A stretch of 64,000 nucleotides of DNA, from positions 28,458,001-28,522,000 of the forward strand of contig OX597825.1 of the NCBI GenBank assembly GCA_951406725.2. Direction: 5' to 3'. The position numbers were made by a program, and so were the translations under genes. The notes under the pieces are model-generated. The model had not been told where the DNA came from. It did not search any database and worked only from the letters and a program-made list of their open reading frames with translations. Each line of letters begins with the position of its first letter. Within the stretch, counting starts at the first letter, position 1. Of the stretch, positions 26,019 to 50,533 are shown one piece after another. Source of the DNA: Octopus vulgaris (lineage: Eukaryota).

Positions 26019-29000
26019 TCACTTAAATTTGTGTTTAGAAATTCTCAAAGCGAGAGATTGATCCGGCAATATTTTTTTGAAGGTGTCTTTGCCCCAAAGC
26101 CAGTAGGTTGTCATCATCCCTCGTCCTTTCACATTTATCTGGCCTCTTGATTCCAAGGCATATCCCCCTAATTCTTCAAGAATGCCAGCTGTAGTCTCAC
26201 TCACTTGAATTCGCAGGGCATAACAACTGGACTCCATCCTCGAAGCTGTGTTCACAGTGTCTCCGAACAAAAAATACCGAGGCATAAGTTTACCAACCAC
26301 ACCGCTAACCACTGGTCCTGAATGTATTCCAATTCGTAATTGTAAAGTAGATTTTGGCATATGTGGTATTTCAAACACCGTCACCGTTGACATCAGATCT
26401 AAAGCCATTGTTGCAATTTCTCCAGCATGGCGATTCTCATTCTTCTCTGGGAGACCACTCACCACCATATATGAGTCACTGATAGTTTCTACTTTATAAA
26501 CATCATAATCATCGAGAACTTTGTCGAATGCATTATAAATCTCATTCAAAAAGTCCACAACCTCGAATGCTTTACTCTCGTTGCAAATATTGGAGAAATT
26601 GGTGACATCGCTAAAGAATACACTGACACATTCAAAATACTCTGGATAAATTTTGTTTCCTTCTCTTATGTCGTTCGCTACTTTCCTTGGAAGCATTTCG
26701 CCAAGGAGCCTTTCTGCTTTAGCCTTGCTCTTTTTAAGTTCTTTTGTTCTTTGAATGACAACAACTTCTAAACTACTAGAATACGTCTCCAACCGATCAA
26801 TTAAATTATCTTTAAACTCACCTTTCCCTGGATGTATTTCTGTAAGCATTTGATGAATTGTACCGAACACAGGCCTCGCTAAAGGTTCATCCTGCCAACA
26901 TTGTGCAATCATTTTGGCAAATAACTCATGAGTGGTTGTATTTGTCGGGAAAAGTTCTTCTTTTATAATTGGTCTTGTGTAAAGCATGGCCTTTCCACCG
27001 ATATCTTCCCAAATTCGCCGTATTGCCTTGCTAGATTCATATGTTATTAAACCTATAATTTCTTTTACTGATAAATAATAGAGTTCGTATTTATAAGGGG
27101 GCGCTCTAGTAATAATTTCACTTGTGACTATTGCGAATGAATAAACATCACCAGGCTGTGTACCAGATTTGATTCCATCTAAATCTGAGACATTTTTTAA
27201 CAATTCAGGAGCTGTCCAGAATAGCTCTTTCTTGCTGTGAACTGATTTCGTAATCCTCTTCTCCCCAAAACGAATAATATTTGCCCCAAAACCAGTGAGG
27301 CGTACGGTCCACCGATTGTTTAATAAACAGTTTGAAGATTTCAGACGACCGTGGGACTTGATATCTGTTTTGTTGTGAATAAATTCCATACCACGACATA
27401 TGTCTTTCAGAAAGGAGAACCGGAATTCCCATCCAAGATCAACTGCTTCATTTTGTAAAATATCTTTTAGACTTCCCTTATCGAGGAATTCGACAAACAG
27501 ACTGACATTGGGTTTCACCAGACAAGCGCCACCATATTGAATAAGGTTCTCATGTCTAAGTTTAACCAAGCTAACCATTTCGAGAATAAGAGCTTCATTT
27601 TTGCTATCTATTGTACTACTGTTAATGAATTTTACATACCATTCTTGTCCTTTCCATCTGTATCTCTGAATCATGGATGCACATCTGCTGTTATAAGGAA
27701 ATGAGACATGGCTTGTCTCATATATTTCAACAGTTGACCAATCGACAATCCAGTCAGTATTAGCGAGAGCTGCTCGTTTTTGCCTGTGTTCTATTAATTT
27801 TGTAATAATGAAATACACGAAGAAGCTTGATATTAAAATAGCTGCAATAGTTAATATGATGTATCCGACATGCACATCACAGTATTTCCCTGTGTAAATC
27901 CATGTGTGACAACGACACTCAAACGGTTTGGAACATGTCCCATATTTGCATTTGGTGCAATTTGCCTTTTCGCAGTAGGGGCCAACATAACCCTCTTTAC
28001 ATATGCATTCTCTTGGTTCTATGCAATGACCATTGTCACAGCCACACTCCACAATATGACATTTTGCACCTTGGTACCCATCTTTGCATTTGCATTTGTC
28101 TTTTGAAATACACGTACCAGTATCGAAAATAGTTACATCCTCGGGGCTTACCAGTTTTCTCCCGCACGGCTTTTTACAAAAGAAAGGTGGTATGACCTTC
28201 TCAGTCCTCATTATCTTAACTGGAGGCCAACTTTCTCGGGGATTTCTAATCAATCTTTGTGTGATTATATCAATCATGCCAGAATAAGACCAATATCGGC
28301 GTAAGTTATATCGAGTAGAATGTGGTAGTGTGAGTGGAGCTTCAATGTCAAATCTTTGGTAATCTCCTTTTGCAGAATATGGGATCTCTAGTTGGGCAGT
28401 GTTGTTGATTTTTTGGAAGCACCTTATAAATTCTGTGACTCTTTCTTCACCTGAACCTGTCCGATTTGAACGAGGATTTATATGAGCTAAAGATCCGAAG
28501 TAACCAATACGGTTCCCATGTCTATCAAGTTGCAGATAAGAAGTCAAACCATGAATTTTAACTTTTCGTAATTCAGCAACTTGTTGTTCTCCAGTCGCTG
28601 TCGTTTGATGGCGGATGATTTGCGCCAGCATGGCTGCATAAAGATGCACAGCATCGTATCCAAGCCCCATTCTTGCACCAATATAGTTGGGTCTGTAGCT
28701 TACGCTTCCGCCTTTGTATATAGTTTTGTCGGCTGCAAACCAATTACCGAATATTCGAAACCAGTCAGATGAACTATAGCCGCTTATATTATATTGTTCA
28801 CTAAACAAATTTGTACCTGCAAATGCATGAGTGCATTTCACTGTACCATTGCATACTCCCTCATCATCAAATGGGAATTGCCTGGCATATTCACCAAATA
28901 AAACCCATTGAAAACCATGTAACGCAGAGATGCCAGTCAAATATGCATCATGGAATACATAAGGTTGAATAAACTTAGGCGCAAATAAAAATATTATCTT

Positions 29001-31082
29001 ACAACCTGAAGCGGCAGTATCTAACATTTCTGCCGTGAAATGCTTAGCAAACATACTTTTTTCATCTATATTCTTTAGAACCGGAAGGACAATATCTGCA
29101 ATCAATTTGATTCCATATTTATTCATATAAACGTAAAAGAGTGGGCTGACGTGAGTGTCGTGGTAACGCATTATTAATATTTGAAACCATTTCCGCTCTT
29201 TCGTAGCGAGAAGTACTGAGTTGATGAGAGAGTCTTCCGTCCAACAAATCCTATTGAAATATTTGTATCTTTGGATGCTGGAGAAATCACCTCCAATGTT
29301 AGCTATTGAAATAAATGGCAAACGTCCTTTCAGAAGCAATGGGTATACGGCTTCAGTGATCTCTAATGACACGCTACTGATCACTAAACGTATACTATCA
29401 TAACGAAGCAAATTAATTTCTGAAGTAAAATACATTAATTTTTTGTATGCAATCGATACATTGTTCTTGGTGTCCACGCTTTTTACACTGAACCACACGC
29501 CTTTCTTTTTCAAATACGGAACTAATATTCCATTGTTGATGTCATTTACAGCAAGTTGAATGAAAGTATTAACGTGAGAATCAACGTTTTCCCCAGACCC
29601 ACTGTAGTGAAGATCTCCAAAGTGGACAATTGAAACATTACCTCGAACAGTAAACTCTGGTGTGGTATATGAAATTTGTTTTTTACCGTGAGGGTATATC
29701 GTTAACTTTACTTTGTCAATTACCTCACATATTGATATATATATAATAGCTCTTCCTCTTTTTAACTTAGCATATTTATCAGATGATACACAAACATCAA
29801 CCGGATCTGTTAGAAAAAATAATGAACGATCAGAATCTGGCCCTGAATATATTCGATGATCACTGCTATCCAACGCAATAAGAGAAAATCCACCAGGGAT
29901 GAAGGAACTTAGTAATATAGGGATTCTTTTCGTTTTGGGATCTCGAATTTTATTCCATCTTTCTTTCACTTTTTCATCGAGAACTAATTTCGATATAAGC
30001 TGAACCTCGATGCTTATTAAAGACGTGAAAATCATAGGCAATATATTCACCTGTTTCGCACCTGTCACACGAGTGAACAGAAAATATTTACCATCATCTG
30101 AAATATGATAGTGATCAAAATCGATATAGCAAGACGGACAAGATGGTATTCTAGTAAAAGGATCACGTGCCATTGTCATCGTTAAATTTAACTGAAAATT
30201 ATGGACTGCATCTAAAATTCGAATCGTTCGGAAAACAACTTTACCCTTCACCGCTTGTTTACGAATAGACAAATCTCGTGTGTTGAGATGTAGCAAAAAT
30301 TCATCAGCGTCCAGCGTAACTTCTGTCATAGCTAAAATCATTTCTCTCTTTTTGTCGGCATAGAATTTCTTATAGTCATACGGAACTGTTAATATAACAA
30401 ATGCCACTGAATCAAGGCCATCTTCTACTCGTTTATTGCTGCTATCCCGAATTTCGACCTCAACATCGAAATTATGGTTCGCTTTTACTGATGCTGGAGG
30501 TTGTTTGGTAATTCTCAAATGATGTGCAGGAACTGTAATGCGTATTGGATTAGTATCAGTTTTTGCGTGATATTTGGGGACCTCAATTCTCAGCACTCGT
30601 GGGCCAGGCGGTAATATTGTATGTTCATGGTAGATCCAGTCAATTATTATTTCTCCTTTAAATATTTCAATGTTCAATTGAACTTTAGAATTCGGTGACC
30701 CACACCGGGTTTTCGCATATTCTCTATTTAATCTCTCCGGATAACCCAGCCACCATGCTGTTTTCTGACACAATTTACCTCCACTCTCAGCCCAAGTATC
30801 TGAATGGGAACTGTTTTCGGCTGTTTTAACATCCAGTGATGTCACTTTTGCTGTTATGTTTAATGTTGGTTTTGGTGTAAACAGAGTCCCGTTCTTAAAT
30901 TGTAACACGGCAATTATTGATTTGCTAATCGTTTGATTTAGTGGGACAGAATAGTAGAGATTTAATGGATTAGAAGGAATGCTACTTGGGGGGAAATGCT
31001 CTTCTTTAAACTTAATAATATATTTCCCATTATTTGAAGGCAAAAAATTGAATAATATAAAAAGTAAACGCAAAATTTTCAT
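26019..31082 (-). CDS. Intronless receptor guanylyl cyclase paralog A2 (~1687 aa): signal peptide, 3 beta-rich modules, ANF-receptor-like domain, 3 EGF-like repeats, TM, kinase-homology, coiled coil, cyclase
   Basis: Single 5.06-kb ORF. Likely start MKILRLLFILF (M57 of the tracked ORF). Motifs: LAVNDINN, GYDAV, C-rich EGF repeats, TM VGYIILTIAAILISSFFVYFII, HGRLKSSNC, WTAPE, FSDV, YKVETISD, GDTVNTASRMES. Confidence 0.95.
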   Translation of the reverse strand: MKILRLLFILFNFLPSNNGKYIIKFKEEHFPPSSIPSNPLNLYYSVPLNQTISKSIIAVLQFKNGTLFTPKPTLNITAKVTSLDVKTAENSSHSDTWAESGGKLCQKTAWWLGYPERLNREYAKTRCGSPNSKVQLNIEIFKGEIIIDWIYHEHTILPPGPRVLRIEVPKYHAKTDTNPIRITVPAHHLRITKQPPASVKANHNFDVEVEIRDSSNKRVEDGLDSVAFVILTVPYDYKKFYADKKREMILAMTEVTLDADEFLLHLNTRDLSIRKQAVKGKVVFRTIRILDAVHNFQLNLTMTMARDPFTRIPSCPSCYIDFDHYHISDDGKYFLFTRVTGAKQVNILPMIFTSLISIEVQLISKLVLDEKVKERWNKIRDPKTKRIPILLSSFIPGGFSLIALDSSDHRIYSGPDSDRSLFFLTDPVDVCVSSDKYAKLKRGRAIIYISICEVIDKVKLTIYPHGKKQISYTTPEFTVRGNVSIVHFGDLHYSGSGENVDSHVNTFIQLAVNDINNGILVPYLKKKGVWFSVKSVDTKNNVSIAYKKLMYFTSEINLLRYDSIRLVISSVSLEITEAVYPLLLKGRLPFISIANIGGDFSSIQRYKYFNRICWTEDSLINSVLLATKERKWFQILIMRYHDTHVSPLFYVYMNKYGIKLIADIVLPVLKNIDEKSMFAKHFTAEMLDTAASGCKIIFLFAPKFIQPYVFHDAYLTGISALHGFQWVLFGEYARQFPFDDEGVCNGTVKCTHAFAGTNLFSEQYNISGYSSSDWFRIFGNWFAADKTIYKGGSVSYRPNYIGARMGLGYDAVHLYAAMLAQIIRHQTTATGEQQVAELRKVKIHGLTSYLQLDRHGNRIGYFGSLAHINPRSNRTGSGEERVTEFIRCFQKINNTAQLEIPYSAKGDYQRFDIEAPLTLPHSTRYNLRRYWSYSGMIDIITQRLIRNPRESWPPVKIMRTEKVIPPFFCKKPCGRKLVSPEDVTIFDTGTCISKDKCKCKDGYQGAKCHIVECGCDNGHCIEPRECICKEGYVGPYCEKANCTKCKYGTCSKPFECRCHTWIYTGKYCDVHVGYIILTIAAILISSFFVYFIITKLIEHRQKRAALANTDWIVDWSTVEIYETSHVSFPYNSRCASMIQRYRWKGQEWYVKFINSSTIDSKNEALILEMVSLVKLRHENLIQYGGACLVKPNVSLFVEFLDKGSLKDILQNEAVDLGWEFRFSFLKDICRGMEFIHNKTDIKSHGRLKSSNCLLNNRWTVRLTGFGANIIRFGEKRITKSVHSKKELFWTAPELLKNVSDLDGIKSGTQPGDVYSFAIVTSEIITRAPPYKYELYYLSVKEIIGLITYESSKAIRRIWEDIGGKAMLYTRPIIKEELFPTNTTTHELFAKMIAQCWQDEPLARPVFGTIHQMLTEIHPGKGEFKDNLIDRLETYSSSLEVVVIQRTKELKKSKAKAERLLGEMLPRKVANDIREGNKIYPEYFECVSVFFSDVTNFSNICNESKAFEVVDFLNEIYNAFDKVLDDYDVYKVETISDSYMVVSGLPEKNENRHAGEIATMALDLMSTVTVFEIPHMPKSTLQLRIGIHSGPVVSGVVGKLMPRYFLFGDTVNTASRMESSCYALRIQVSETTAGILEELGGYALESRGQINVKGRGMMTTYWLWGKDTFKKILPDQSLALRISKHKFK

Positions 31083-31899
31083 ATTTCTTTTCGAAGCTTT
31101 GACTTGTGCTATTTTACAATTTCCGTTTATAGCAGGAATATATCTTCCGTTGGCGTTTAAAGAATGCCGCTTCTTTGGTAAATAGCAACAACGGCGTCTT
31201 TTCAAATCGATTAAATGAATGAAAATAAATTCAAAACCCTCCACGTCCATAGCTGCATGTACGAGCTGTATGTATATGACTGCATGTATGTGTCTGTATT
31301 ACTATACCTGTGCATGTGTGTATCTATGTGTGTGCATGTGCGTGTGTGTATCTGTGTGTGTTAATGCATGTGTGTGTGTGTGTGTGTGTGTGTGCTTGTG
31401 AGTCTGTATGTGTGTAAATGTAACAATGCTATAAATGGATAATTATGTCATTACCACGGAGACTTTTATGCTCTGGGCACAAAACGACAAATAATCATTT
31501 TATCCAATGCACCAAAGTGTCGTGAACATACATGGATGATATTGGTAATCCACGGCCTGAAATTCTTCCGGCATCGAATCGAATTTTTTAGTTGACATCA
31601 AATCAGATCTCACACAAATGTTTGCAAAAATTTTTTTCCGCGAGATACACTCTGCCAACGAAAATCTGATGACGTTAAAATGGAGTGTGGGTTAACTCTA
31701 TAAGCCAAAACAATCCAGTACAACTATCATACATGTAAATCTGTTAATATTTTCAAATTTTCAAGTCTTATGAAGTCCCAAATTTAGACAGATGATTTTT
31801 GCCCAAGGTAAACTCTGCTTCATTAATTATTGTTTGTATTTCTTACCTACGTATACCCTTGATGTATTAGAAGAAAATGTTGTGAGCCTTGTCTCTGTT

Positions 31900-32490
31900 A
31901 GAAGAGGCATGTGGTTGAAAGTTGAAAGGCGGGATCCTTCTACTAAGAAGTGTGATTTTGTTTATGTACTCCTGGGTCAAAGACTTGACAACGACTACAT
32001 TTTGTAAGGAAGTAGCAGTAGATTATAGAATTTATTTACGAGAGGTCTGCGCACACGATTTACGTCGCAACCAAATAAAGATGGGTGGTGCCGGCAGAAT
32101 TGTTGAAACAGACGAAACAGTCTTTTTCAGAAGGAAATAACAGCGGGATTCAATAATGCTACTAGTGTAGTGGGTTTTCGGCAGTGTATGTCGCGAAACT
32201 CGAGAAGTTTATACCTATTTACAGAAGTCTGTGACGTGCATATTTGCATATTCCTGAGATATCAGGGTACCAATTTCACCATAGAACGTTGAAGCACAGC
32301 ATTGAGTTTGTTAATTCGCAAGGCAATATCTATACTCAACAAGTACGAAACACTTGGGCCTGTCTTATGCGAGGAAATAAACGGTGCTATGGCAGGTATC
32401 GTTTTATAGTGGACTCACATTTTTACGTGTTTATGTGGCCCTGCATGTGCGAAAAATGCGATTTGTATGGAAAATATGAATTTCCTTAAT
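31900..32490 (+). pseudogene. Merlin/IS1595-type (ISXO2-like) transposase remnant
   Basis: GGAGRIVETDETVF-RRK, WVFG and HRTLKHSIEFVN...YTQ..RNTW motifs, with stops. Confidence 0.75.
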
Positions 32491-32768
32491 TCATAATATT
32501 CCGCTACATAGTCTTACTTCATTATTCTTTTGTTTTTATTGACAGTTCACGTTTTTGTTTCATTTCGACTGTTATTTCTAGTGGAAGGTCGAAAGCAAGA
32601 GCTGTGGTGGTGACAATAATATTATTATTATTCTAAATTCCGCCGAGATCGACTTTGTTTTTCATACTTCGGTGTACCAGTAAAACAGTGTGGTAGATGT
32701 AATAGACTAGCCCCCTCCACCAAAATTTTAGGACTTGTGCCTTTAGTAGAAAGGATTATTATTATTAC

Positions 32769-32803
<35 letters not shown>

Positions 32804-35011
32804 TAAGGCGGTGAGCAGGCAGAACCGTTAGCATGCCGGGAAAATTACTTAGCGGGATTTTGTCTGTTTTACGGTCTGAGTTCAGATTCAAATTCCGCTG
32901 GAGTCGACTTTGCCTTTCATCCTTTCAGGGTCGATTCAGTACCAGTTTCGCACTGGGGTCGATGTAATAGACTTAATCCATTCCCCCAAATTTGAGGTGT
33001 TGAAGCCCTCACTTGGTGAATTTAAGTCATCAAAGTGGTGGAGGAGCTGTGTTAGACAGTGTCTCCCACCACGAAAGCCATGCTGGTTGTAATTTAGAAG
33101 ATGATTTTGCTCTAGGAAGGCTGTTATTCTTGATCTCAACTCTCTCTCAAACATTTTGGTGGTATGTGAGGTGAGTGAGATTGGACGGTAGTTTACTGGA
33201 AGCAATTTATTCCCTTTTTTAAAGAGAGGAGCGAATGACTAATAGAGAAATTTTGAGGGATAACACTGGCATTCGGTAATTTCCTCCAGAGATTTGCAAG
33301 AGGACTTGAAAGATGCTGTCTGCATTCCTTCAGCACTCTAGCAAGGAACCTGTCTGGCCCCACTGCTGCATCAGGTTTGATTTCTTTTATTGCTGCTGGA
33401 TATCAGTGGCGTCGAAGGTTATGTCGGAAAAGACATTTTGAGGATCCAAAGAAGTAAAGATGCTTGATTTAACTGAATGTGGGTCACTGAAAACAGAGCG
33501 GTATTGACTTTGCAGAACCTCAGCCGTATCTTTGGCATCACTGTGAAAGATGCATACCGTTTCCGTCAACCAATGTGCGGATAGAGGAAGCTATGGACTT
33601 ATGTGTTTTTGCAAAGGAGTAAAAGACATTAGAGTTATTCTGTAGCTCTTTGGTCGTTTATGAAGGTTCTCATACAGCCCTGCAGCTGTAGCTTCTTTGA
33701 TTCCAAAGTTGTTAATGTTCTCTTTGGGTGCGCTGCTGATGGTGGTATTTTAGAATATTGATTTTTCGGTTTATTCTTCATATTCTCCTGAAGTGCGCTT
33801 TTCTCTGTTTTGGAATCCTGCATCTACTGTTATTTATGAGTCGTGTGAGTGTGTGTTTTGAGTATATGTGGGTAACTGTGTCCTCAAAGAGTTGCCATGC
33901 ATTTGTGTTTGTTGTGACATTGGAAGAAGCAAGGGTGAAGGACAGTCCACTTGCAATAAGTCTTGAGTGATCACATTCCACTTTGACTTGTGTAAATTTA
34001 TATTACCAAATGGTAGTACTGGAGCTATTGATTTATGCCAAACTTTTTGGATGCTGAACATTGAGGTTACAGATCGGATAGGAAGGATCTTTCTACTATG
34101 ATGTTATGGCTACTGTTAGCAAGAGTGCTTAGCACTAGGTCCAAAACGCTGTGGTTGTTTCTGGTTTGTTCATGGACGAATTGTGACAGGAAAAAATATC
34201 CATAAATTTGAAAATTTACTCTACTGCTGCTTTGTCTGAGCTTGAGGTGAAAGTTCTTGGTCTAACAATATTAGTGGACCAATCTACCGAGGGTGGGTTA
34301 AAGTCGCCCATCATCAGAATATTTCCTGGGTTATATCGCAGGAGGAAAAATGTGATGTTCTCGAGTCACTTTTGGAAATAGTGTAAGGGTGCTTGTGGGG
34401 ATCTGTAGAGCCCAACGACAGACAGGTCTTTACTCTTGTTGTGTTGAGACTGATTCGTAGTAGCCGTTGGAGAAAAGATCCTTGGTATCTGTGCTGAAAG
34501 AATCATGGAGGGAAACAGCAACTCCATCGTTTCTTTGGCCTGCCCGATCTGAGCGAATGGCACTGAAGTCTTTGGTTTTCAGTTCAGCCTCTAAATGAAG
34601 GTCATTTAGGTGGGTCTCAATTAGGACAAAGAAAGGGATTGGATGTGAGCGTGCTGCAATCCATTCCTCAATGTAGGATAGTTTCCTTTTTGAACCTTGA
34701 TGGCTGGGTTGATACCTTAGGCGTGAAGGAGAAATGTCATTGTTAAGGGAGCAGCATCGATGCGTTTCTTCAGGATCCGCACATTATGTTTGTTGTTGTT
34801 ATTGTTGTTGCTACTCAGTAAGGGTATTTTTGCCTTGGGTTGGTAATAGAGGTTGGATACTTCTCTGAATTTCTTTCGCCAGATTCAGCATGGCTAAAAA
34901 AGAAGTTTGGTTTCTAGAGTCACTGCAGTTGTTGCACTGCTGGGTGCGACTGCAGTTAAAGCTTTTGCTCTTTTCGGCTTGGTTTTCTGTTCCTCAGCTT
35001 ATGTGGGATAA

Positions 35012-36712
35012 CTCTCTCTTTTACACTTCTACTTGTTTCAGTCATTTGACTGTGGCCATGCTGGAGCACCACCTTTAGTCGAGCAAATCGACCCCAGGAC
35101 TTATTTTTTGTAAGCCTAGTACTTATTCTATCGGTCTGTTTTGCCGAACCACTAAATTACGAGGACGTAAACACACCAGCATCGGTTGTCAAGCGATGTT
35201 GGGGGGCGGGGGGGGCAAACACAGACGCACAAACATATACACACACACATACACACACATATATATATTCATATATGCGACGGGCTTCTTTCAGTTTCCG
35301 TCTACCAAATCCACTCACAAGGCTTTGGTCGGTCCGAGGCTATAGTAAAAGACAGTTGCCCAAGGTGCCACGCAGTGGGACTGAACCCAGATCCATGTGG
35401 TTGGTAAGCAAGCTACGGATCTTTTCATTTTGAAAGCCAGATTTTTCAGATTTTTCTAGTTAACTAAATAATTTGAAACTTCGTATACTGGTAGAATGTG
35501 TCAAAAGAAAACAATAATTTCAACTAGTCTTTTTGACAAAAACGTATTTTATAAGTTTTAAACGTAGTTTAAATCTGCGAATTTTAACCAATCGTATTGT
35601 CTGTTTTCCTTTGAAATTATTAGCTGCATAGTGTTACTGTGACGTAGACAGCTATTTTGTGAGTGGGTAAGCAGTAAGCAAACAGCTGTGGTAGATGTGG
35701 TTATCATGGCAGTGGTGGTGGTGGTGGTGGTGGTGGTGGCGGCAGTGGATGATGATGATAATGATGATGATAGTAGTAGTAGCATTGATTATGTTAGGAT
35801 GTCTCCTGGATGGTAGTGTTGAAGACATTGCAGAGTGTAGTGGTGGTGAAATTGGTGATTTTGAATATGATGCTGGTATTGATCTTGGGGCTGTGGTTGC
35901 AGAAGATGGTTGTGGTGGTGGCATTGGAGGTTGTAGTAATGGTTGTAGTGGTGGTTGTGAAGATGATTCAGATATTGATAGTCTTTGCATTGAGGTGGTG
36001 GCAGAGTCAGAGTAAATAATAAGAGCCCAGTTAACACAAGATTCTTAAATTTCGGAGATCATCAGATAGAGAGCAAGAAGTTAAAAGTTCCAATACTGGC
36101 CCAATTCCTACACCCCAGATTCTTCAACTATTTTATAAGAAAGAGGTTAATGGCAGGATAGGGATTCAGCTTAAAAATAAATTGTATAACAAAAAATACA
36201 TAAATAAATTACTGCTCCAACGATGTAATTTTAGTATGTGTGTATGTATGTGTGTGTGTGTGTGTAAGCAATGCAAACAATGGAAAATAATTCAAACACT
36301 CATTTTATATATACTAAGACTTTCAAAAAGAATTTAACTATTTAGGATCTGCACAAATTTTATATGTACTCCACGAAGTTTGAAGTGTTTAGTTACGATA
36401 AGCGGATGTTTACATTTTATGTTTACGTTAACTACGTCACAAAATAGCTGTTTACGTCACAGTAACAATATTTTTAGAGGCACTAAATGATATGAAGTCG
36501 AAAGAAAGAATATCATTGGTTAAAATTCGAATTATTAAACAACGTTAAACTTAGAAATTACAATTCCGTTTTCATTTTGGTTTACAATTATGTTTTCTTT
36601 TGACACATTCTACCAGTATACGAAGTTTCAAATTGTTTAGTTAACTAGGAAAATCTGGCTTTCAAAATGAAAAGATCCGCAAGCTACATACCACACAGCC
36701 ACTCCTACGCCT
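35012..36712 (-). mobile_element. SINE family A split by a TIR element
   Basis: 35012-35415 and 36680-36712 rejoin to match the 21330-21366 head. Confidence 0.85.
35416..36679. mobile_element. Non-autonomous TIR element (CGGATCTTTTC...GAAAAGATCCG, ~90-100-bp TIRs), TSD CAAGCTA
   Basis: TIRs and the 7-bp duplication (35409-35415 / 36680-36686) read directly. Confidence 0.9.
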
Positions 36713-39740: not shown

Positions 39741-39900
39741 ATGTAATGGAAAAAATTATTTTGAAAGTGAAGATTATTTGAGTTTTGCGAAATTTTGTGA
39801 CAATCTAAAATGTATAATCTTGTGTATGTGACCGTTAGGTTTAAACAGAGATATACGAGTGAAAAGTCATGGTAACAGTAGTTGCTGTAAAGTGATTTTA

Positions 39901-40495
39901 TTACCTCCGCCTTAGCGTAGGCGGAGGTATTGTTTTCAGTCACGTTTGTTTGTTTGTTTGAATGTCCGTGGAAAAGATACCTCACGAACCGCTGGATGGA
40001 TTCGGATGAAACTTTCAGGAATGTTCGAACTCGTAACTGGCACGACCTGATTAGATTTTTGTATTGATCCGGTACCACAAAAGGATTCTGGATGATTTGT
40101 CATATTTACTTTACTTTGCATGATTACGAGCTTACGTTAACTTTCAAATCTTTCTCAATTATCTCCCTTTAGGCTGTAACTATTTTGAATGGTGAATTTG
40201 TTAACTTTGACTTGTATTAGATAAGAATAAAGTATTTATTACTGTTACTAAATTTTTTACAGCTACCTTCACATTCAATTACTGCCACTGTGTTCGATTA
40301 GGTACCGGACGAGAATTCTGGATTATTTTTCCGATTTTGTTAAACTTAACTTTTGAGAACGGTCGGGTTCATTTTAGTATTCTCGTTTGTGAAAGCAGTC
40401 GAGTTTATTTAAAATATTCTTATTTTAAAAATCATCTCTGACTAATCGTTGAGAGGACGTTGACGGAGGTTTGCGCTCTCTGAGTGCTCTTGCTC
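39901..40495 (+). mobile_element. Helentron-associated (HINE/DINE-1-like) element
   Basis: 5' TTACCTCCGCC..GGCGGAGGT hairpin, (GTTT)n, and 3' CGGAGGT subterminal inverted repeat followed by GCGCTCTCTGAGTGC stem-loop. Confidence 0.7.
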
Positions 40496-41877
40496 TCTTT
40501 GTTATAGGTCTTTTCTTTCGTTGGTTTTGCTAGTCAATAATTTCGGTGGATTCTCTTCTTATCTATGTGATGGAGGAAAGATTATTTTGAAAGTGAAGGC
40601 TGTTTGAATTTTGTGAAATTTTGTGATAGTTTGATATGCATAATCCCGTATGTGTGGCCGCTAGTTTTAAACTGAGAGTTTTTAACAAAGAGTTTTACGC
40701 AGACAAATATAAGTGAAAAGTCAAAAGTGTGCGTAAATCGTGAGTGCTCAATGAATTTAATAAAATCGCAGGATGCATGTGTACATGCGTATATATTTAG
40801 TAAAATCACAGGAGAAATTTACACCGCACTCGCAAAAAATGATTTGTTTTCCCACAGGTTATCGCAGGCACCATGGGGTCAAAATTAATCTTGTGTTGAT
40901 TTCATATCGCAGCTTTCGCAAGAATTAGGAATTAAAAATGAGAAATGTTTGAGTTGAGCTGATTTCTGTTTCTTCGTCTACATACCAAGCAGAGCAAGGA
41001 GAAAAATACGTCCAGTTGCCACGGCTGCCTAAAAGAGACAATTTCTTCAATTTATCTTCAATTTTCCGTGAGTATTTCAGTGATTTCTCTGATTATTCGA
41101 ATATAAACACACCTCTTCTATAATAAGAACACTTTCAAACGTCGACAGATATCTGAGTCAAGCAACTTCAAAACAAGGAACTCTTGCGAGTACATAACCT
41201 CTTAATTTCTTCTAGATGTCCGATCACGCAAGCATTCTCCTTTCATAGAAAATGAAAATGAATATATACAACTTTCTGAATAACTGAGGCGCCTTGAAAT
41301 CACATAGTCCAAAACATCTTCCAGAACCAATAACAAACGCAGAAGATAAGCGATTGTCATTTTAACAAACTGCTCCGCCTCAAAAACTGTAAAGATCGTT
41401 ATAACTTTATTTGCTACAGGAAAATATAATGTCACCGATAATTGAAACAGAACAAAGTAAAACTTCTCAAAATCTATAATCACTCTCACTAACCATAGTA
41501 GCAGTAACTATTACTGCTCTAATATATTTTGACCTTTCCTGGCCACATGGGTGCTGGCACTTGTTTGCTTGTTCCCTACCTACAGCTGTTGGGTCTATAA
41601 TAATAAAGAGTAAAATTAATTAATTAATTAATAATTTTACCAAGTAGTTCGGTATGTTAAAAGGACCATTATCGGTAAATTTATACATAAAATTATTATT
41701 ATTATGAGTATAATTATAATTAGGGTTCAGCAAAAATTTGCTTCACCACATACCGAAATTTAGAAATAGCAGTTAAAACTAACTATTTCACTACTATAAG
41801 AAAATCTCCCAGACAGCAATACTCAACAACCCACGCAGGTAAAGAGAAAAAATACCGAATCTATCCGGCTTTGATTA

Positions 41878-41960
41878 ACTGTGTACGCGTTTCGGAGTTA
41901 GAGAGATGTGAAAAATGCAAAATCATATTTCCACTCTATCATTCTCCTCTTCAACACAGT
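41878..41960 (-). ncRNA. Type I hammerhead ribozyme motif (Penelope/retrozyme-like)
   Basis: Minus strand reads ACUGUG-UUGAAGA-GGAG..CUCC-GAA-ACGCGU-A-CACAGU. Confidence 0.72.
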
Positions 41961-42689
41961 GGTCAATATACAGACAAATGATATCTAGATGTATGTCGGC
42001 CAACCTGACTTTCTTTCTTTCTCTCACAAAGTTAAGCCAATCTCTAACATCGACAATAAAAACAACAACATAACTTTACACACATAGTGACAGCAGCAAG
42101 CTTCTGAAGTTAGCTCAAAGTCAACAACAACAACAACAGAGAAGGCGCAATAGCCCAGTGGTTAGGGCAGCGGACTCGCGGTTTCGATTCCCAGACCGGG
42201 CGTAGTGTATGATTATTGAGCGGAAACAGTTAAAGCTCTACGAGGCTCCGGCAGGGGTGGTGGTGATCCCTGTTGTACTCTTTCGCCCCAACTTTCTCTC
42301 ACTCATCACCAACAATCATAATAATCCTGAAATTTTGAGAGACAAATCCTGAAATTTTGAGGGAAAAGGACCAGTCGAATTACATCGAACCCAGCACATG
42401 ACTGATACTATATTTATCGACCTCGAAAAGACGAAAGGCAAAGTCGATTTCGGCGGAAATTGAACTCAGATCTTGATGACGGACGAAATAACCATTTCTT
42501 TACTACCCACAAGGGGCTAAAACACAGAGGGGACAAACAAGGACAGACAAACGGATCAAGTAGATTACATCGACCCCAGTGCGTAACTGGTACTTAATTT
42601 ATAGACCCTGAAAGGATGAAAGGTAAAGTCCACCTCGACGGAATTTGAACTCAGAATGTAACGGCAGACGAAATACCTATTTCTTTACT

Positions 42690-42800
42690 ACCCACACATA
42701 CACAAACAGACACACACACAAACACACATATATAGACAAAGACACACACACAGAAACACACATACACAAACACATACACATACACATACATAAACACACA

Positions 42801-42836
<36 letters not shown>

Positions 42837-42900
42837 AACACACAAACACAAAAACACACAAACATACACAAGCATACGCCCACATACACACACACATACA

Positions 42901-42943
<43 letters not shown>

Positions 42944-43048
42944 ACATGCAAACACACACAAACACAAATACACACACACATACACAAGCATACACCCACA
43001 AACACACATACACAAACACACACAGACACAAACACACAAACACACACA
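42690..43048. repeat. (CA)n-derived microsatellite
   Basis: Direct reading. Confidence 0.95.
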
Positions 43049-43698
43049 TTAACATATACCGATATTGAAATTAATATTCATAACGTAAAGTGCTCGGCGT
43101 TATATGAACCTATGGCAGTCGTGGTTATTTTAAAGTGAAAAACATTTGAAAAATAGTTTATGTTGCTCTCAAAATCATTAGATGAATTGTCAACGATGTC
43201 AGTAGATAATTTTCCGTTAGTATTTTCTTGAATCTTTTAGAATTTTCGGATTATAATGGTGATCTTTCTCATGAATGTGGGTGAACGTCCAAAAGCTTGG
43301 ATTTTCATGGATATCAAAATTATATAAGTAATTTTTACTTTAAAAGGAGGCTTGTCCCATTGTTTTTAAGTGCCAGTGTAAAAACAAAAAAAAAAAAAAA
43401 AAAAAGAAATTGAAAATTCCGTCTTAAAGGCCCCAAGGATATAGTGGCGGGGTGGGATTAAAAAATCAGAGATTTTCATAATTGTTTTTTCATAAAATCC
43501 TTCCCTTTATCATTTTGAAGTGACTGGTGAAGATATAATTTGAAAATCCCTGTGAAAACGGAGATAATCCAAGTGTGAGCGACCTATTCCAGACCTCAGT
43601 TTTTTAATCTTCCTTAAAATATACTTCACTTAAGGCTGTCGCGCAGTTTCATCTTTTTTTTTTTTTTTGTCTGTAAACTGCAACTTATACAGAAGTAT

Positions 43699-44116
43699 CG
43701 GATCTTTTCGGTTTGAACGGCAGTTTTTAACATAATTTCTAGGTAACTAAAAAAATTTAAACTTCGTATACTGGTAGAATGTGTTTATAAAACATCTTTT
43801 TCTCTTGGCTTTATTGAGAAAATTTCATAGTTTGTAAGATATTTGGTCTTTAATTTCTTGCATTTCGGCAATTTCAACCAATCAATGACAGTCTATTGAG
43901 GTGAAAACATTCTGTGCCATATGAATATGTCCCTCGTTTAAGAAACAGATTGGGTTTATTTACATTTGTGAAGAAAAAAAGGATACCCTTCCCCAACCCT
44001 AACCCTAACGCTAAAACAGATTGAAATGCAATAGGTCGATCCTAGGGTCATAATTATGGGTGACAATTTCATATGACACCGCTAGAAAAAACTGCCGTTC
44101 AAACCGAAAAGATCCG
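43699..44116. mobile_element. CGGATC-family MITE (30-bp TIR, TSD AAGTAT) upstream of B1; duplicated at ~58187-58606
   Basis: CGGATCTTTTCGGTTTGAACGGCAGTTTTT and its exact reverse complement; AAGTAT at 43693-43698 and 44117-44122. Confidence 0.9.
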
Positions 44117-45110
44117 AAGTATCTACTTTTCACTATTATTCGTTCATACGCTATTGTTTATTTACTATTGATTCACGAAATTATCTCAGATTCCCGATGT
44201 TATATAACGCAATTAAAAACAGCTCCGTATGAGAAGGGGAGGTAATCCCAAGAATGAAGAAATTTCCAGAGATGACAAACGATTAAGGGAAAGAAATGGC
44301 ATACCAGAACAACAGGTAGATGTTTGTTTATACGTATTTATATATGCGTCGTTTGTTTAAAATTCGTATAAAATTCTATTATATAATAATGGTATTTGGC
44401 ACAATTTCGATTATAGAGAAAAATGTAAATTTTTACAATCACACACTTGTCTCAGTTTCGAGGTGTCATTTACTAATAGAATTAAAGATTTCCAAAGCTT
44501 TTCGTGATCTGATTTCTTCAAAACACATCTAAAAACCATATCAAAAACATTTTCATCTTTAAAATGTAACGGGTGTAACAGTAAAAATTACATATGGAAA
44601 ACATGTCAGAATGCAATCAGGTAAAGCAGATCTACAATGGTATTAAATTATTCACTTACAAAATTTTCAGGTGTATCCACACGCTTGGAACCGACATGGA
44701 AACATCTTGCGACACATGTTGGGAATATCCTCTTCATTTTCATTTGACTAAAATTTTCTTGTGACAAAATCTGTTCATCTGAATTAATCAATAAATATAT
44801 TAAGTATGTGAGCGCATGTGTGTGTGACTTCATACGTGTGTATGTATGTCTCAAGTATGTATGTATATATGTATACACGCACGCGCACACACACACAAAC
44901 ACACACAGATACTTGCGCGTGCACGCACGCACACGTCGCACACAGCCACACACACACTCACGCACACATATATACGATTATGTGTATGTTTGTGATTACG
45001 TATGCGTATGTGAGTGCAGGATTGTGTGTTATTGTGTGTGTGACTACAAATGTGTACATGTACGTGTGTATGTGGTGTGTGTGTGTATGTGTGAATGCGT
45101 ATGTGGTTTA

Positions 45111-45147
<37 letters not shown>

Positions 45148-45487
45148 CTTGTTTCTTCTTTTGTGCATATAGATGAGATAAATATTCACGAAGAACCTTT
45201 CTTAATTTTTTCTTTTATCAGAGACGCTACTCTAAAACAATTTCATATGGAATTCAAATTATGAAAGAAGAAAATTAAAAAAATAATAAACGCTTATTAT
45301 CAGATCAAAAGTGAGTGTTTAACATATGAAGTTGCGTTTAAGAAAGACGTTGATAGATTTTTTGTTATTAGATTTATTTGTTTAATTGCACAGGCGCTCT
45401 GGCTAGCATTTAGTTTTTCATGTTGAAATAGAAAAATTACAATGCTTTTAAACGACAAATGATTATTCATGAAATATCCGATGAACT

Positions 45488-48400
45488 ATGACAATTGCAT
45501 GCCTCATTCTTATCTCTACTTGGATGTTTGTGACAGGACAATTGGAATTATCATTTCTACAATTTCACGAACCTCCCGCAATTATACCCGATGATCCTTC
45601 AAAGTTATACTATTCAGTGCCACTCAATCAAATGATCAGCAAACCGATCATTGTCGTTGCCGTTTATTCAAACGGGACACCTTTTTCTGAGGGAGAAGTC
45701 AATACGACGGCTACAATAGACAGCTATGCTGTTTCGCCATCTGGCGAGATTAATAACAAAGATACTTGGGCAGACAGTGGCGGCCAACTGTGTCAGAAAT
45801 CAGCATGGTGGTTGAATTATCCGGAGCGATATAACAGACATCTTGCGAAAACTCGTTGTCATACACCGCATTCTTCCATTCTAATGAAATCACGAATTTT
45901 TAATGGAAAACTCATATTTGATTGGATTTACCATAAACATACCATTGTACCTCCATCCATGCGAATGTTCAGGATCGAAATACCAGATTATAAAATATAC
46001 GTCGACTCTTTCCCAATATTTGTAACCAAACCTGCACACCGGTTAGTTGTAACGAAACCACCACCTGTAACAGTAATGGCTAATCACGATTTTGATGTTG
46101 AGGTTGAAATAAGAGATGAAGAAGGAAATACTCTCATAAATGGTCTTGATTCGGTAGCAATTGTGGAAATGACAATTCCTTACAATTATAAACGTTTCTA
46201 TGCTGACCCAGAGAGAGAAATGATGATTGATTACACTAAAATTCGAATGGATGGAGAGGATGTAATAATTGATTTTAAAACACGAGATATAATAATGCGT
46301 CAACAAGCAAATTATGGTAAGGCAAAATTTACTGGAGTTCGAATTTTAGACGTTACAGAAAATTTGCAACTAAATATTACTTTAACCATGGCAAGAGACC
46401 CATGGAGCAGAATTCCTGCTTGCTCAGAATGTTTCCTTGACATCGAACGTGCAAGACAGTTGTCCAGTGACAGAAAGTTTATTACTTTCCAACGATTAAC
46501 AACTGAGGAAGAGGAAAAGATTCTACCTGTTGTCTTCACGAATAATTTCTCAGTACATTATCAAATTCTGAATAAAGTTGATATGGACACCTCATCAAAA
46601 AGTATGTATTCTAAACTTAAAACTAATGAAAATGTTGTAGAGGTGCCTATTAGTTGTCCTCTACTTAACGGCTTAAGTATTTTTGCAATGGATATGAAAG
46701 AACGTCGGATCTATTCAGGTCCTCACTCCACATTACGCCTAAATATTAATACAATCCCAAAAGATATATGTTTGTCAAAGGACTACACTAGGAATATGTC
46801 AGAAGGAAAAGCGCTCGTATTTGTATCTATATGTGAGGTAGTCAACTCCGTCAAACTGATAATAACTTACGATGGTCCACCTACTGTTACTTACAGAACT
46901 CCAGCTTTTCGTATAATAGGAAACATTACAATTGGACATTTTGGTGACCTTCGATTTAGTGGTGATGGAAAGGAAATTGACTCACATATCAATTCTTTTA
47001 TACGATTCGCAATCAATGATGTTAATAATGGTATTATTGTCCCAGAATTAAGAAAGAAAGGATTGAAATTATATTTGAAGTCGTATAATATTCCAAACGA
47101 AAAATCTGCAACCTATAGAAAACTTGGGGATTTGGAAACTATTTCAACTAATATTCATTTGGTTATAAGTTCCATTCCAGGAAATGTTGCTAATGTTCTT
47201 AGTCCGTTCATAGTGAAGTTAAGGATACCTTTTATTTCGACGATCGATTCTACTAGAGAATACATCGATAAAGATATATACCCATTGTATAATAGTATAA
47301 GTTGGTCAGAGGAGGCGTTCTATAATTCAGTGTTTCAATGTGCTAAAGATAGGTTTTGGACTGACGTTGTAATCCTTCGATATCACGATATTAATTTAAC
47401 TGGTTTATTCTATTCTGTGGCTATCAAATACAAAATTAACTTACGCAATGAATTTGTCTTTGGGGCAGTAAAAGATTTAAAACTGAAGAACTTGTATGAC
47501 AGGAAGCTGAAATTATCGTTGGAAGCAGTGAAAAGAACTAACTTGAAAATAATCTTTCTGTTTGCTCCATTCCATATACAGCCAATCGTCTTTCGAGAAG
47601 CCTATCTTATGAACCTTTCTTCTCTGCATGGATTCCAATGGGTTTTAATGAAAAAATACGCGCGAGAGTTTCCATTTGAGAACCATTCGGTTTGTAACAA
47701 AAAATTAGAATGCACATTAGCTTTTACTGGAACCTACCTCTTTGATTCGACCTACAATGTATCGGGTTACCAAACAGATAGTTGGAAACGAGTTCTTAAT
47801 TATTATTTTAAAGAAGACCGTGTACTTTACAAAGGTGGAAGAGTTCGTTATAGATCCTTTGAAATAGGAGCGTTAATGGGATTGGGTTATGACGCCGTGC
47901 ACCTTTACGCTAAAGCGTTAGCCATACTTCTCAATAAACAACTAACACTTAACGGTGCGAAGGTTAATTGGCTCATGCGCAAGATAACTATACATGGACT
48001 AACAGATAAAGTATCTTTAAATGCATACGGTGATAGAATTGGTTATTTCGGTTATCTGGCCCAAGTTAACCCAATCCCACGTTGGCCATATTTGCCGAAA
48101 TCTAAAGTTATAACTTACGTAAAGTGTATTAAGAGATCGGAAGACGGTATTCAATTAGAAATACCTTATGAATCGAAAATACTTCCTCACAATAAAACTG
48201 CGGCACTGGTAGCATTTCCTGTCGGTAAGGTACATAACACTAGACAATACATATCTTTATCGGGGATGGTTAGTCTCAATACACAAAAAATGATGCCAAT
48301 AGAGGGTGAAGATTGGCCGCCAACCATTTTTATTCGGACAGAAAGTATAGTTCCACCATATTATTGCGTTCATGCGTGTGGTGAAAAGTTAAAAGACCCC

Positions 48401-50533
48401 GGTAATATCAATGTTTTTGATGGAGGAATATGTCGTCCAGATGACAAATGCGAATGCTTTGAAGGATTCGAAGGGAGGCATTGTCACACTGTTCAGTGCC
48501 ATTGTGCACACGGCCGTTGCAATAATGAAGGTTCTTGCATATGTAATCCTGGTTATACGGGTCCCTCTTGTGGAGCAGCAATTTGTGAGGATTGTAATTT
48601 TGGTGTATGTGTAAAACCAGGAGTATGTGAATGCACTACTATAGTACATTTCGGTGAAAATTGTGCTATTCATATTTCATCCATCATTGTTCCAATATTA
48701 TTTGCAGCAATTCTTCTCATTAGTATATCTTATGTCGTGGCAGGAATAACTAGCTCGAAGACGAAAAGTATAATCTATCAAGACTGGATGATTGATTGGG
48801 ACAACGTTACTGTACCTGAAAAATTAGGTATGGTAGGAGAATCCAAGGGAATAATTAACAAAACGGTTGCAGCTTATAGATGGGACAATGAGAACTGGTA
48901 TGTGAAAAAGATTAATAGTAAGACAATTCCTCCTGATGATAAAAAGATTATTTCAGACATGGTCAAGTTAACTAAAACTAGACATTATAATCTGATTCGA
49001 TACGGTGGATGCTGTTTGACTTATCCTAACGTCAGTTTGTTCATGGAAATTGCTGACAAGGGGAGTATAGCGGATGTACTTGCCAATGAAACATTTGAGA
49101 TCGGATGGGAATTTGGATTTTCATTTTTAAAAGATATATGTTGCGGAATGGAATATTTGCACGACAAATCTGAAATCAAAAGCCATGGACGTCTGAAATC
49201 TTCCAACTGCTTGGTTGATAAGCGCTGGACTGTACGTCTGTCAGGATTTGGTGCACCGTCTCTTCGTTATGGCAGCTACAGAATCCCAGAGTCTGAAGAA
49301 ATGTCTGATTTAAAAGATCTTTTTTGGACCGCACCCGAACTACTGAGGGATGACACAAATCTCGATGGAGTAAAGTCGGGCACACCGCAAGGAGATGTCT
49401 ATTCATTTGCTATCATTGCGTGTGAAATTGTGACGAAGGCAAAACCATACCATTACGAACTGAAACATTTAAGTGAAAAAAGCATTTTAGATCTCATTAA
49501 AGATTCACACTCACGGGCCAATGAAGATATACGACGTGTATGGGAGAGTATTGGTGGAGGTAAAATGATTTTTACAAGACCAATTTTAAGTGAAGATTTA
49601 TTACCAAACAGTAATCTATCTAAGAAGCTGTTTAAAAAAATGCTCGAAGAGTCTTGGAATGAGAAGGAATCTTCACGACCGACTTTTAATAAGCTTAGCA
49701 TCATTCTAAATCAAATGTACCCCATAAAAGGAGAACTTATAGATAAATTAATCCACCTCTTGGAAACTTATTCCAATAATTTAGAAATGGTTGTAATAGA
49801 AAGAACCAGAGAACTAGAAGAAAAAAAAGCTAAAGCTGAGCAGCTATTGGGCCAGATGTTGCCCCCGAAAGTAGCTTGTGAACTGAAACAAGTTGGTGAA
49901 GTGATACCGGAATTATTCGAAAATGCCACGGTATTCTTCAGTGATATCGTGAATTTTGGCCGAATATGTAAAGAAAGTAAACCAATGGAAATCGTTGATT
50001 TTTTAAATGAAGTTTATAAATTATTTGACTCAGTGGTGGACGGCTATGATGTTTATAAAGTGGAATCCATCAGCGATTCCTACATGGTAGTTAGTGGTAT
50101 TCCAGAAAAGAATGGTGATCGCCATGCAGGAGAAATTGCAACAATGGCTTTAGATCTGATGTCATATGTTACTCTACTCCATGTTCCCAACACGGAAAGT
50201 AATGTGCTACAATTACGAATTGGAATGCATTCCGGCCCGGTAGTAAGTGGCGTGGTGGGGAAACTATTGCCTAGATTTTGTCTATTCGGAGACACCGTCA
50301 ACACAGCTTCCAGAATGCAGTCTAGTTCTTATACCTTACACATTCAAGTGAGCGAGAATACTGCAGCAATTCTTGATTCTTTAGGCGGTTATAAATTAGA
50401 ATGTAGAGGGGAAAGAGAAGTAAGAGGTCGCGGATTAATGACAACGTACTGGCTGTGGGGTAAGGACACATTTATGAAAGAATTCCCTGATATATCCCTG
50501 GGAGTCCCTCTCTCACAACACAAATTCAAATAA
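45488..50533 (+). CDS. Intronless receptor guanylyl cyclase paralog B1 (1681 aa), same architecture as A2
   Basis: Single ORF with signal peptide MTIACLILISTWMFVTG, FAINDVNN, GYDAV, 3 EGF repeats, TM, HGRLKSSNC, FSDI, YKVESISD and PRFCLFGDTVNTASRM. AATAAA overlaps the stop (50529-50534). Confidence 0.95.
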   Translation: MTIACLILISTWMFVTGQLELSFLQFHEPPAIIPDDPSKLYYSVPLNQMISKPIIVVAVYSNGTPFSEGEVNTTATIDSYAVSPSGEINNKDTWADSGGQLCQKSAWWLNYPERYNRHLAKTRCHTPHSSILMKSRIFNGKLIFDWIYHKHTIVPPSMRMFRIEIPDYKIYVDSFPIFVTKPAHRLVVTKPPPVTVMANHDFDVEVEIRDEEGNTLINGLDSVAIVEMTIPYNYKRFYADPEREMMIDYTKIRMDGEDVIIDFKTRDIIMRQQANYGKAKFTGVRILDVTENLQLNITLTMARDPWSRIPACSECFLDIERARQLSSDRKFITFQRLTTEEEEKILPVVFTNNFSVHYQILNKVDMDTSSKSMYSKLKTNENVVEVPISCPLLNGLSIFAMDMKERRIYSGPHSTLRLNINTIPKDICLSKDYTRNMSEGKALVFVSICEVVNSVKLIITYDGPPTVTYRTPAFRIIGNITIGHFGDLRFSGDGKEIDSHINSFIRFAINDVNNGIIVPELRKKGLKLYLKSYNIPNEKSATYRKLGDLETISTNIHLVISSIPGNVANVLSPFIVKLRIPFISTIDSTREYIDKDIYPLYNSISWSEEAFYNSVFQCAKDRFWTDVVILRYHDINLTGLFYSVAIKYKINLRNEFVFGAVKDLKLKNLYDRKLKLSLEAVKRTNLKIIFLFAPFHIQPIVFREAYLMNLSSLHGFQWVLMKKYAREFPFENHSVCNKKLECTLAFTGTYLFDSTYNVSGYQTDSWKRVLNYYFKEDRVLYKGGRVRYRSFEIGALMGLGYDAVHLYAKALAILLNKQLTLNGAKVNWLMRKITIHGLTDKVSLNAYGDRIGYFGYLAQVNPIPRWPYLPKSKVITYVKCIKRSEDGIQLEIPYESKILPHNKTAALVAFPVGKVHNTRQYISLSGMVSLNTQKMMPIEGEDWPPTIFIRTESIVPPYYCVHACGEKLKDPGNINVFDGGICRPDDKCECFEGFEGRHCHTVQCHCAHGRCNNEGSCICNPGYTGPSCGAAICEDCNFGVCVKPGVCECTTIVHFGENCAIHISSIIVPILFAAILLISISYVVAGITSSKTKSIIYQDWMIDWDNVTVPEKLGMVGESKGIINKTVAAYRWDNENWYVKKINSKTIPPDDKKIISDMVKLTKTRHYNLIRYGGCCLTYPNVSLFMEIADKGSIADVLANETFEIGWEFGFSFLKDICCGMEYLHDKSEIKSHGRLKSSNCLVDKRWTVRLSGFGAPSLRYGSYRIPESEEMSDLKDLFWTAPELLRDDTNLDGVKSGTPQGDVYSFAIIACEIVTKAKPYHYELKHLSEKSILDLIKDSHSRANEDIRRVWESIGGGKMIFTRPILSEDLLPNSNLSKKLFKKMLEESWNEKESSRPTFNKLSIILNQMYPIKGELIDKLIHLLETYSNNLEMVVIERTRELEEKKAKAEQLLGQMLPPKVACELKQVGEVIPELFENATVFFSDIVNFGRICKESKPMEIVDFLNEVYKLFDSVVDGYDVYKVESISDSYMVVSGIPEKNGDRHAGEIATMALDLMSYVTLLHVPNTESNVLQLRIGMHSGPVVSGVVGKLLPRFCLFGDTVNTASRMQSSSYTLHIQVSENTAAILDSLGGYKLECRGEREVRGRGLMTTYWLWGKDTFMKEFPDISLGVPLSQHKFK

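Follow-up and report, generated by a model that had tools for sequence, protein, structure and literature searches.

A tandem array of single-exon receptor guanylyl cyclases in Octopus vulgaris as candidate variable subunits of a heterodimeric cyclase

The active site of class III cyclases is built from two monomers: the first contributes a pair of Asp that bind metal, a triphosphate-binding Arg, and a P-loop-like segment, and the second contributes Glu, Cys, Asn, Arg, and Lys (PMC2576301). Mammalian receptor guanylyl cyclases (rGCs) are homodimers, and ODR-1/DAF-11 of Caenorhabditis elegans is an obligate heterodimeric rGC, each chain supplying part of one active site (PMC5225109). Human soluble guanylyl cyclase (sGC) α and β homodimers are inactive, because the half-site residues are split between the two chains (PMC3591389). 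Here we describe a tandem array of rGC genes of Octopus vulgaris, four of which lie in a 64,000-nucleotide stretch of contig OX597825.1 (G000:C12:28458001-28522000; hereafter the window), together with a related gene located elsewhere in the genome (contig C18). They are a real, transcribed variant of the rGC family, undescribed in the literature searched, that probably works like a heterodimeric cyclase with one common and many variable subunits.

The initial annotation, made from the window alone, had predicted four paralogous rGC genes in tandem, in the style of other cephalopod expansions, and a cluster extending past both window edges, and these predictions were borne out. Open reading frames were found for all four genes. 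The Pfam E-values for the cyclase domain are 1e-58 to 1e-61. B1 (45488–50533, plus strand; 1681 residues, β-type rGC as defined below) and A2 (26019–31082, minus strand; 1687 residues) are complete coding sequences in single exons. A1 (1–1628, minus strand, frame from 3) is the 5′ part of a β-type rGC gene, encoding the signal peptide, immunoglobulin (Ig)-like domains 1–3, and the start of the Venus-flytrap domain, and its frame stays intact past the window edge, to 1693 residues (locus L013). B2 (60070–64000, plus strand) comprises the 5′ 1310 codons of an intact 1681-residue frame (locus L014), with the cyclase lying beyond the window. Upstream of 31082, the A2 frame extends without a stop to an ATG at 31250 (26019–31250) that is not conserved in A1; this start was rejected, as the Met at 31082 aligns with the A1 start and opens a hydrophobic stretch. 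Translation of A2 likely starts at 31082, in agreement with the initial annotation. An N-terminal probe of the genome gave 11 matches among 15 candidates, ten on C12 and one on C18, and a cyclase probe (51 matches among 59 candidates) added an eleventh C12 copy. The array consists of 11 copies over 177 kb, in which three A genes (minus strand) face eight B genes (plus strand) head-to-head, and the copies are 3–10% apart in DNA. Intact frames were found in A0, A1, A2, B1, B2, and B8 (6/11), and the other five, all B copies, are broken. In three B copies the break is a single base inside a homopolymer run, which may be an assembly error, and B5 and B6 carry a common 1042-nt deletion. The family stands apart from most cyclases of the genome by its single coding exon, because the others, for example the canonical rGC on C29, mostly match exon by exon. 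Public gene models fuse neighboring copies in four of the eight examined (P0031 being B1 plus B2), and the family may consequently have been overlooked or wrongly counted in expression studies.

The C18 gene (L060:6348-1303) encodes 1682 residues in one coding exon with the same architecture as the array genes; it is unlinked to the array and is the sole copy of its type found (1/11 matches). By analogy only, we call the array genes and their relatives (18 rows with a cyclase) the β type, and the C18 gene with P0033 of Argonauta, P0095, P0096, and P0101 (five rows) the α type. In the β type, Glu, Cys, Asn, Arg, and Lys/Arg are each kept in 17 of 18 rows, including the Glu and Cys that specify GTP, and the P-loop glycine and the glycine preceding the second Asp are each kept in none. 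In B1 the two glycines are replaced by Asn1489 (49952–49954) and Ser1529 (50072–50074). In the α type, both glycines are present in 5/5 rows and both Asp in 4/5, and Cys, Asn, Arg, and Lys in 0/5; the C18 protein retains the triphosphate Arg along with both Mg-binding Asp. The second metal Asp is changed to Ala in five of the eight B copies, including the intact B2 (ETISASY), and the cyclase motifs of A2 are SDVTNF, ETISDSY, and RYFLFGDTVNTASR. Neither type has in one chain the canonical full set of both half-sites found in homodimers, and an α homodimer would be without a complete site because Cys, Asn, Arg, and Lys are lost. Since α keeps its own half and is unable to complete the site, its most likely partner is a donor of Asn and Arg. 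Human sGC α1 aligns to the C18 protein with a matching Asn/Arg loss, and the β motif IVNF/IANF resembles the C2 half of adenylyl cyclase 5 (IANF), the C1 half being IEGF. The three other octopus guanylyl cyclase loci with the loop motif (L038–L040) all keep TIGD. This split of catalytic residues between the array and C18, overlooked in the initial annotation, emerged from comparison of the cyclase domains, and the array genes look like catalytic half-subunits complementary to the C18 gene.

Three further observations concern individual cyclase domains. The guanine-specifying Cys of A2 is replaced by Phe (RYFLFG), uniquely among the 18 β rows, and this may alter or abolish the use of GTP. The cyclase domains of P0032 and P0096 (ENA records) are degenerate on both half-sites, so that these proteins may be subunits with a decoy or regulatory role. 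For P0032 as for P0014, the contig on record has 48,168 bases.

Phylogenetic trees placed α (100/100) and β (100/98) as sister clades, which persisted with the motif columns removed (99, 96, and jointly 99); the trees omit P0034, P0035, P0005, and P0018, the motif-column-free tree was built from 14 rows, and nematode sequences are absent. Placement of the Strigamia protein as an α member, and hence an arthropod-old split, was rejected (p-AU 0.004; long branch). With their sister position, same architecture, and modified Asp side, the β genes would be the natural partners of α. Our favored reading, to which we give somewhat better than even credence, is that the array encodes variable β subunits of heterodimeric rGCs, for which C18 provides the common α subunit; we lean equally toward an obligate or strongly preferred α–β pairing. 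In such a receptor, α and β would pair via the coiled coil and the cyclase domain to form an active site alongside a pseudo-site. The flytrap and/or Ig3 would bind an extracellular ligand, which is most likely a peptide or a protein, and the signal would be relayed by the kinase-homology domain to the production of cGMP, with the specificity set by the β copy. Historically, an older receptor of the same architecture would have turned single-exon in the cephalopod line, presumably by retroposition, and the single-exon gene would then have duplicated into α and β, of which β expanded in tandem with patchy conversion. A wider proposal, with not quite an even chance of being right, is a combinatorial coleoid system, in which a common cyclase subunit is obligately paired with a tandem variable repertoire whose Ig3, flytrap, and EGF regions are reshuffled by patchy gene conversion for different cues such as egg or sex peptides, and which would have originated independently beside ODR-1/DAF-11.

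Several points weigh against this heterodimeric reading. The β chains keep the first Asp in 18/18 rows, the second in 17/18, and the triphosphate Arg in 18/18, a conservation above that expected of a dead half-site, so β homodimers may be active; in the literature searched, no source demonstrates that Gly-to-Ser or Gly-to-Asn changes destroy activity. Both sides are degenerate in P0032, P0096, and possibly P0045, and A2 is devoid of the specificity Cys; therefore, catalytic decay also happens without complementation. A conventional rGC of the genome, for example that on C29, could be the partner of the α chain instead. The α rows number only five, and related rows are not independent. Complementary loss is clear in α; in β it rests on the two glycines and on the Asp-to-Ala change in the five B copies, most β chains keeping both Asp.

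We regard one alternative as unlikely, although it deserves serious weight: the array genes are self-sufficient homodimeric rGCs that tolerate the glycine changes, C18 is a modulator, a dominant-negative, or the partner of another cyclase, and the Asp-to-Ala copies are decaying. Every named catalytic side chain is indeed present in B1, B8, A0, A1, and most relatives (including Asn in 17/18 rows, besides the Asp and Arg counts just given), and the frames of four of the five Asp-to-Ala copies are broken in this assembly. However, both glycine changes are fixed in all 18 β rows and occur in none of the five α rows, and L038–L040 keep TIGD. In addition, the intact Asp half of α needs an Asn/Arg donor, and the β pattern mirrors the C2 half of adenylyl cyclase, all of which favor the assignment of the array genes as β subunits.

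The overall architecture of the encoded proteins was given by Pfam in the order ANF_receptor (PF01094, above its cut-off), EGF-like, kinase-homology, HNOBA, and Guanylate_cyc; no family was found on the N-terminal ~480 residues, and a match to PF21876 ("STIV turret") was rejected as under its cut-off. In B1 (all on the plus strand), a signal-peptide-like hydrophobic N-terminus (45488–45538; predicted from hydropathy alone, with a putative cleavage site) is followed by three tandem Ig-like β-sandwiches (45539–46927; residues ~18–180, 181–359, and 360–480), a Venus-flytrap (ANF-receptor) domain (46928–48352; residues ~481–955), and three EGF-like repeats (48365–48664), in which 18 Cys at residues 960–1059 form three six-Cys units. 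A single transmembrane (TM) helix (48683–48739; residues 1066–1084, by hydropathy) then leads to the kinase-homology domain (48872–49696), where SHGRLKSSN replaces the HRD loop, and to the guanylyl cyclase domain (49910–50467), where E1526, C1598, N1605, R1609, and both Asp are kept. The kinase-homology domain, coiled coil, and class III cyclase are in the order of the rGC class, and the type I topology, with a signal peptide and one TM helix, is a hydropathy prediction. The Pfam domains, the 18 Cys, and the TM helix agree with the initially annotated ectodomain of a long N-terminal region, a flytrap, and three EGF-like repeats before the TM helix. A structure search was proposed in the same annotation; in B1, the predicted fold of the N-terminal 465 residues (pLDDT 91) is an almost all-β chain, which structure searches split into three Ig-like sandwiches with a best Z-score of 10. 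The matches are generic, among many unrelated Ig folds, and include FdeC, invasin, filamin, macroglobulin domains, and Rel/Runt folds; in an Atlas search, N-terminal leads scored at most 0.86 (under 0.9) or were absent. In the model, the N-terminal region is three Ig-like domains. The model of the whole ectodomain (pLDDT 85; pTM 0.66) matches the flytraps of a class C G-protein-coupled receptor (GABA-B) and GC-A. The chloride-binding S(x)nGPxC motif is described for the NPR ectodomain (PMC5225109); GPxC was found in the flytrap region of B1 and all other rows in 0/30 cases, two of the rows being without that region and two being outgroups.

The B genes have a non-coding first exon. Contigs of sequencing runs X4 and X6 cover 30/30 bins of window positions 45150–50570 and have a loose end before 45219, the sequence of which matches 44287–44312 exactly and is joined to the acceptor at 45221/45222. 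The 26-nt exon pattern gave no matches in 100 shuffles, so the match is not due to chance. The 3′ end of the B1 first exon is located at 44287–44315 (plus strand; loose ends of X4 and X6), with a GT donor at 44316, and the 5′-untranslated region (UTR) intron extends over 906 nt (44316–45221, plus strand; GT..AG), the acceptor AG ending at 45221. This joint shows transcription and splicing of B-type genes in X4 and X6, the contigs of which are mostly 95–100% alike (107/124 and 62/73) and may derive from a close relative. B-type genes are transcribed, with a 5′-UTR intron. The initial annotation had taken absence of transcription of any copy as a reason to discard its receptor family, and runs X4 and X6 remove this objection; its description of the genes as intronless holds for the coding sequences of A1, A2, B1, and B2, each contained in one exon, but fails for the B1 5′-UTR. 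The 5′ joint was absent from runs X1 and X2. The stretch or part of it is present in 9 of 24 sequencing-run rows, none of them a recorded RNA run, where low or zero shares elsewhere are no evidence on tissue, the runs carry no tissue labels, and contig depths do not correspond to expression levels. The B2 copy of the first exon lies at 58777–58805, and the B2 5′-UTR intron is placed by homology to B1 at 58806–59802 (both plus strand). A scan of ten loci showed the first exon next to another five B copies. The ~1.5 kb located 5′ of B1 (43676–45147) and of B2 (58164–59646) are 95% identical; therefore, the first exon and the probable promoter belong to the duplicated unit. The 5′-UTR part of B1 exon 2 (45222–45487) contains eight upstream ATGs, for which translational control is possible.

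Divergence among the copies is uneven along the gene. Four-fold sites of paralogues are near-identical in Ig1–Ig2 and at the cyclase end, and, within some stretches of the flytrap, EGF, and juxtamembrane regions, differ by up to ~50%. The uneven synonymous divergence is significant in 5/5 pairs (chi-square p of 2e-5 to 4e-12, some cells being small), which fits patchy gene conversion in the A group as well as the B group. In a comparison of six B copies, positions with at least three residues cluster in Ig3 and the EGF repeats, Ig3 being the most variable. The ratio dN/dS is <1 in most diverged comparisons and never significantly >1; positive selection on Ig3 was rejected on the same grounds (dN/dS of 0.60–1.24 among diverged pairs). 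The hypervariability of Ig3 and EGF among paralogues, the resemblance of the Ig-like domains to adhesin, invasin, and filamin rods (best Z-score, 10), and the loss of both catalytic sides in P0032 and P0096 could suggest that the proteins serve mainly for adhesion or recognition through a tall Ig and EGF stalk, or are non-catalytic receptors with a weak or vestigial cGMP output. We consider this improbable, as the cyclase is better conserved than any other part (dN/dS of 0.09 for A2 vs B1) and, were the proteins not catalytic, it would be difficult to account for the retention of catalytic residues in complementary sets. That the B array consists mostly of recent segmental duplicates in neutral decay that surround one to three functional genes, their number being raised in part by assembly error, would accord with the broken frames in five of eight B copies, the deletion common to B5 and B6, and the B1 vs B2 dN/dS near 1 in several regions, but is very improbable given that dN/dS is <1 in the A copies and B8, significantly in the flytrap and EGF regions, that three breaks are single homopolymer bases, that the copies are 3–10% apart, that several β paralogues exist in other records, and that spliced transcripts of B-type genes are seen.

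Among named sequences, Octopus and Argonauta proteins are the nearest, and close members were found in O. vulgaris, O. bimaculoides, O. sinensis, Argonauta, and ENA/Logan records, the named Argonauta records including both α and β types, on contigs that differ in length; a Sepia fragment falls in the P0015 cluster. An exhaustive search gave 65 hits and revealed the architecture in the bivalve Sinanodonta (P0037) and the centipede Strigamia (P0045), both of which have the N-terminal region, ANF, EGF, and kinase domains, with the cyclase also present in P0045. N-terminal pieces occur in Gigantopelta and Tegillarca. The Strigamia N-terminus as query matched only itself (1/6441 candidates), and an alignment search (20/7998) added no new non-cephalopod member; homologue searches depend on exact words, and the taxon range is a lower bound. 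Judged by these records, the architecture dates back at least to protostomes, with a patchy record, and what looks cephalopod is limited to the single-exon form and the expansion. The lineage-specific receptor array inferred in the initial annotation is accordingly not supported as far as the architecture is concerned.

Other sequences related to the family or the locus were also noted. P0056, P0057, P0065, P0067, P0050, and P0085 are distant N-terminal homologues with ~22–45% identity, some of which stop abruptly, as at exon ends; they suggest that the family ranges more widely than can be seen from named records. Some 50 long proteins with repeats match B1 only at residues ~173–230 and were treated as generic Ig-like repeats. 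P0036, P0039, P0044, and ~50 alike have as many as 14 repeats that match the beginning of Ig2, and a Pfam scan of six repeat proteins found no family on P0036, P0039, P0044, or P0049; they are possibly an unnamed Ig-like repeat family. Between A1 and A2, the window contains remains of a LINE-type retrotransposon (7889–10127, plus strand; RVT_1, E-value of 2e-23), and a similar reverse-transcriptase-like frame adjoins the array (L023, 4879–6255). An isolated ~180-nt B-type cyclase end, 93% identical, lies in L057 (7071–7247; G000:C2:130719073), with no other part of the gene in the 10 kb examined. On C16, C2-like and C1-like adenylyl cyclase halves (L058, 6410–7960, and L059, 2162–3718) are uninterrupted frames of ~520 residues located ~270 kb apart, the C2-like half having Thr at the conserved glycine.

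As for the biological role, for which the initial annotation named chemosensory, gamete-recognition, or cell-recognition functions and a neural one may also be considered, sperm or other reproductive chemoreception is our first, tentative guess, with a chemosensory epithelium and other tissues each doubtful to the same degree. Chemoattractant peptides of the egg capsule are reported in O. vulgaris (PMC6712556), and a sea-urchin guanylyl cyclase chemoreceptor is mentioned, with no squid cyclase named, in the available part of PMC5636881; by analogy, sperm chemoreception by the array receptors may serve as a lead. If the proposed pairing is true, an unrecognised receptor repertoire with a co-receptor-plus-tuning-receptor logic would be added to cephalopod biology, and would offer named candidates for orphan cephalopod cues, of which the attractants of sperm derived from eggs are an example (PMC6712556). 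Single genes would appear inactive alone because the C18 partner is needed. The canonical relatives, the glycine-modified β, the Asp-to-Ala β, and the α chains would constitute a natural series for the split from homodimer to half-sites. The family had been put forward as undescribed in the initial annotation, and neither the architecture nor the α/β split is described in the open full-text literature searched. Studies of the squid-sperm proteome and a 2004 review on atypical cyclases may bear on this novelty. No mention occurs in the accessible portions of PMC6878697, PMC1435932, bioRxiv 2023.09.14.557824, and PMC10700109, in the main text and readable supplement of PMC9068888, or in the accessible supplements of PMC9712504.

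In comparison with NPR1/GC-A and GC-C, which are the best PDB matches (E-values of 1e-109 for B1 and 1e-112 for C18), the octopus proteins have in common the flytrap ectodomain, one TM helix, the kinase-homology domain, the coiled coil, and a GTP-type cyclase. In contrast, the octopus chains are ~1680 rather than ~1030–1040 residues long, with three Ig-like and three EGF-like domains added, and the genes have no GPxC, a single coding exon, and catalytic residues split over two gene types. The sea-urchin speract/resact receptor of sperm is likewise a membrane guanylyl cyclase of a marine invertebrate and is not known to have Ig or EGF domains; the automatic NCBI name speract/resact receptor on P0003 and P0004 is attached to fused gene models. 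Uncharacterised proteins of Sinanodonta (KAL3862181, P0037) and Strigamia (T1JDE2, P0045) have the same ectodomain order with N-terminal homology, are ~21–31% identical in the Ig and flytrap regions, and fall outside the α plus β clade; their genes are probably multi-exon, considering the fragmentary models and non-aligning insertions. The division into an Asp side and an Asn/Arg side is the same as in sGC α1/β1 and in the C1/C2 halves of adenylyl cyclase, C18 having the sGC α pattern. Unlike sGC, however, the octopus genes encode membrane receptors without a haem domain, and unlike the C2 half, the β chains mostly keep both Asp. As in ODR-1/DAF-11, octopus α and β would each supply part of the site, whereas the octopus types are sister clades of one family, which points to an origin independent of ODR-1/DAF-11 in trees that contain no nematode sequences, and one α would serve many β genes. 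The ectodomain of ODR-1 is dispensable, whereas that of the octopus receptors is enlarged and variable.

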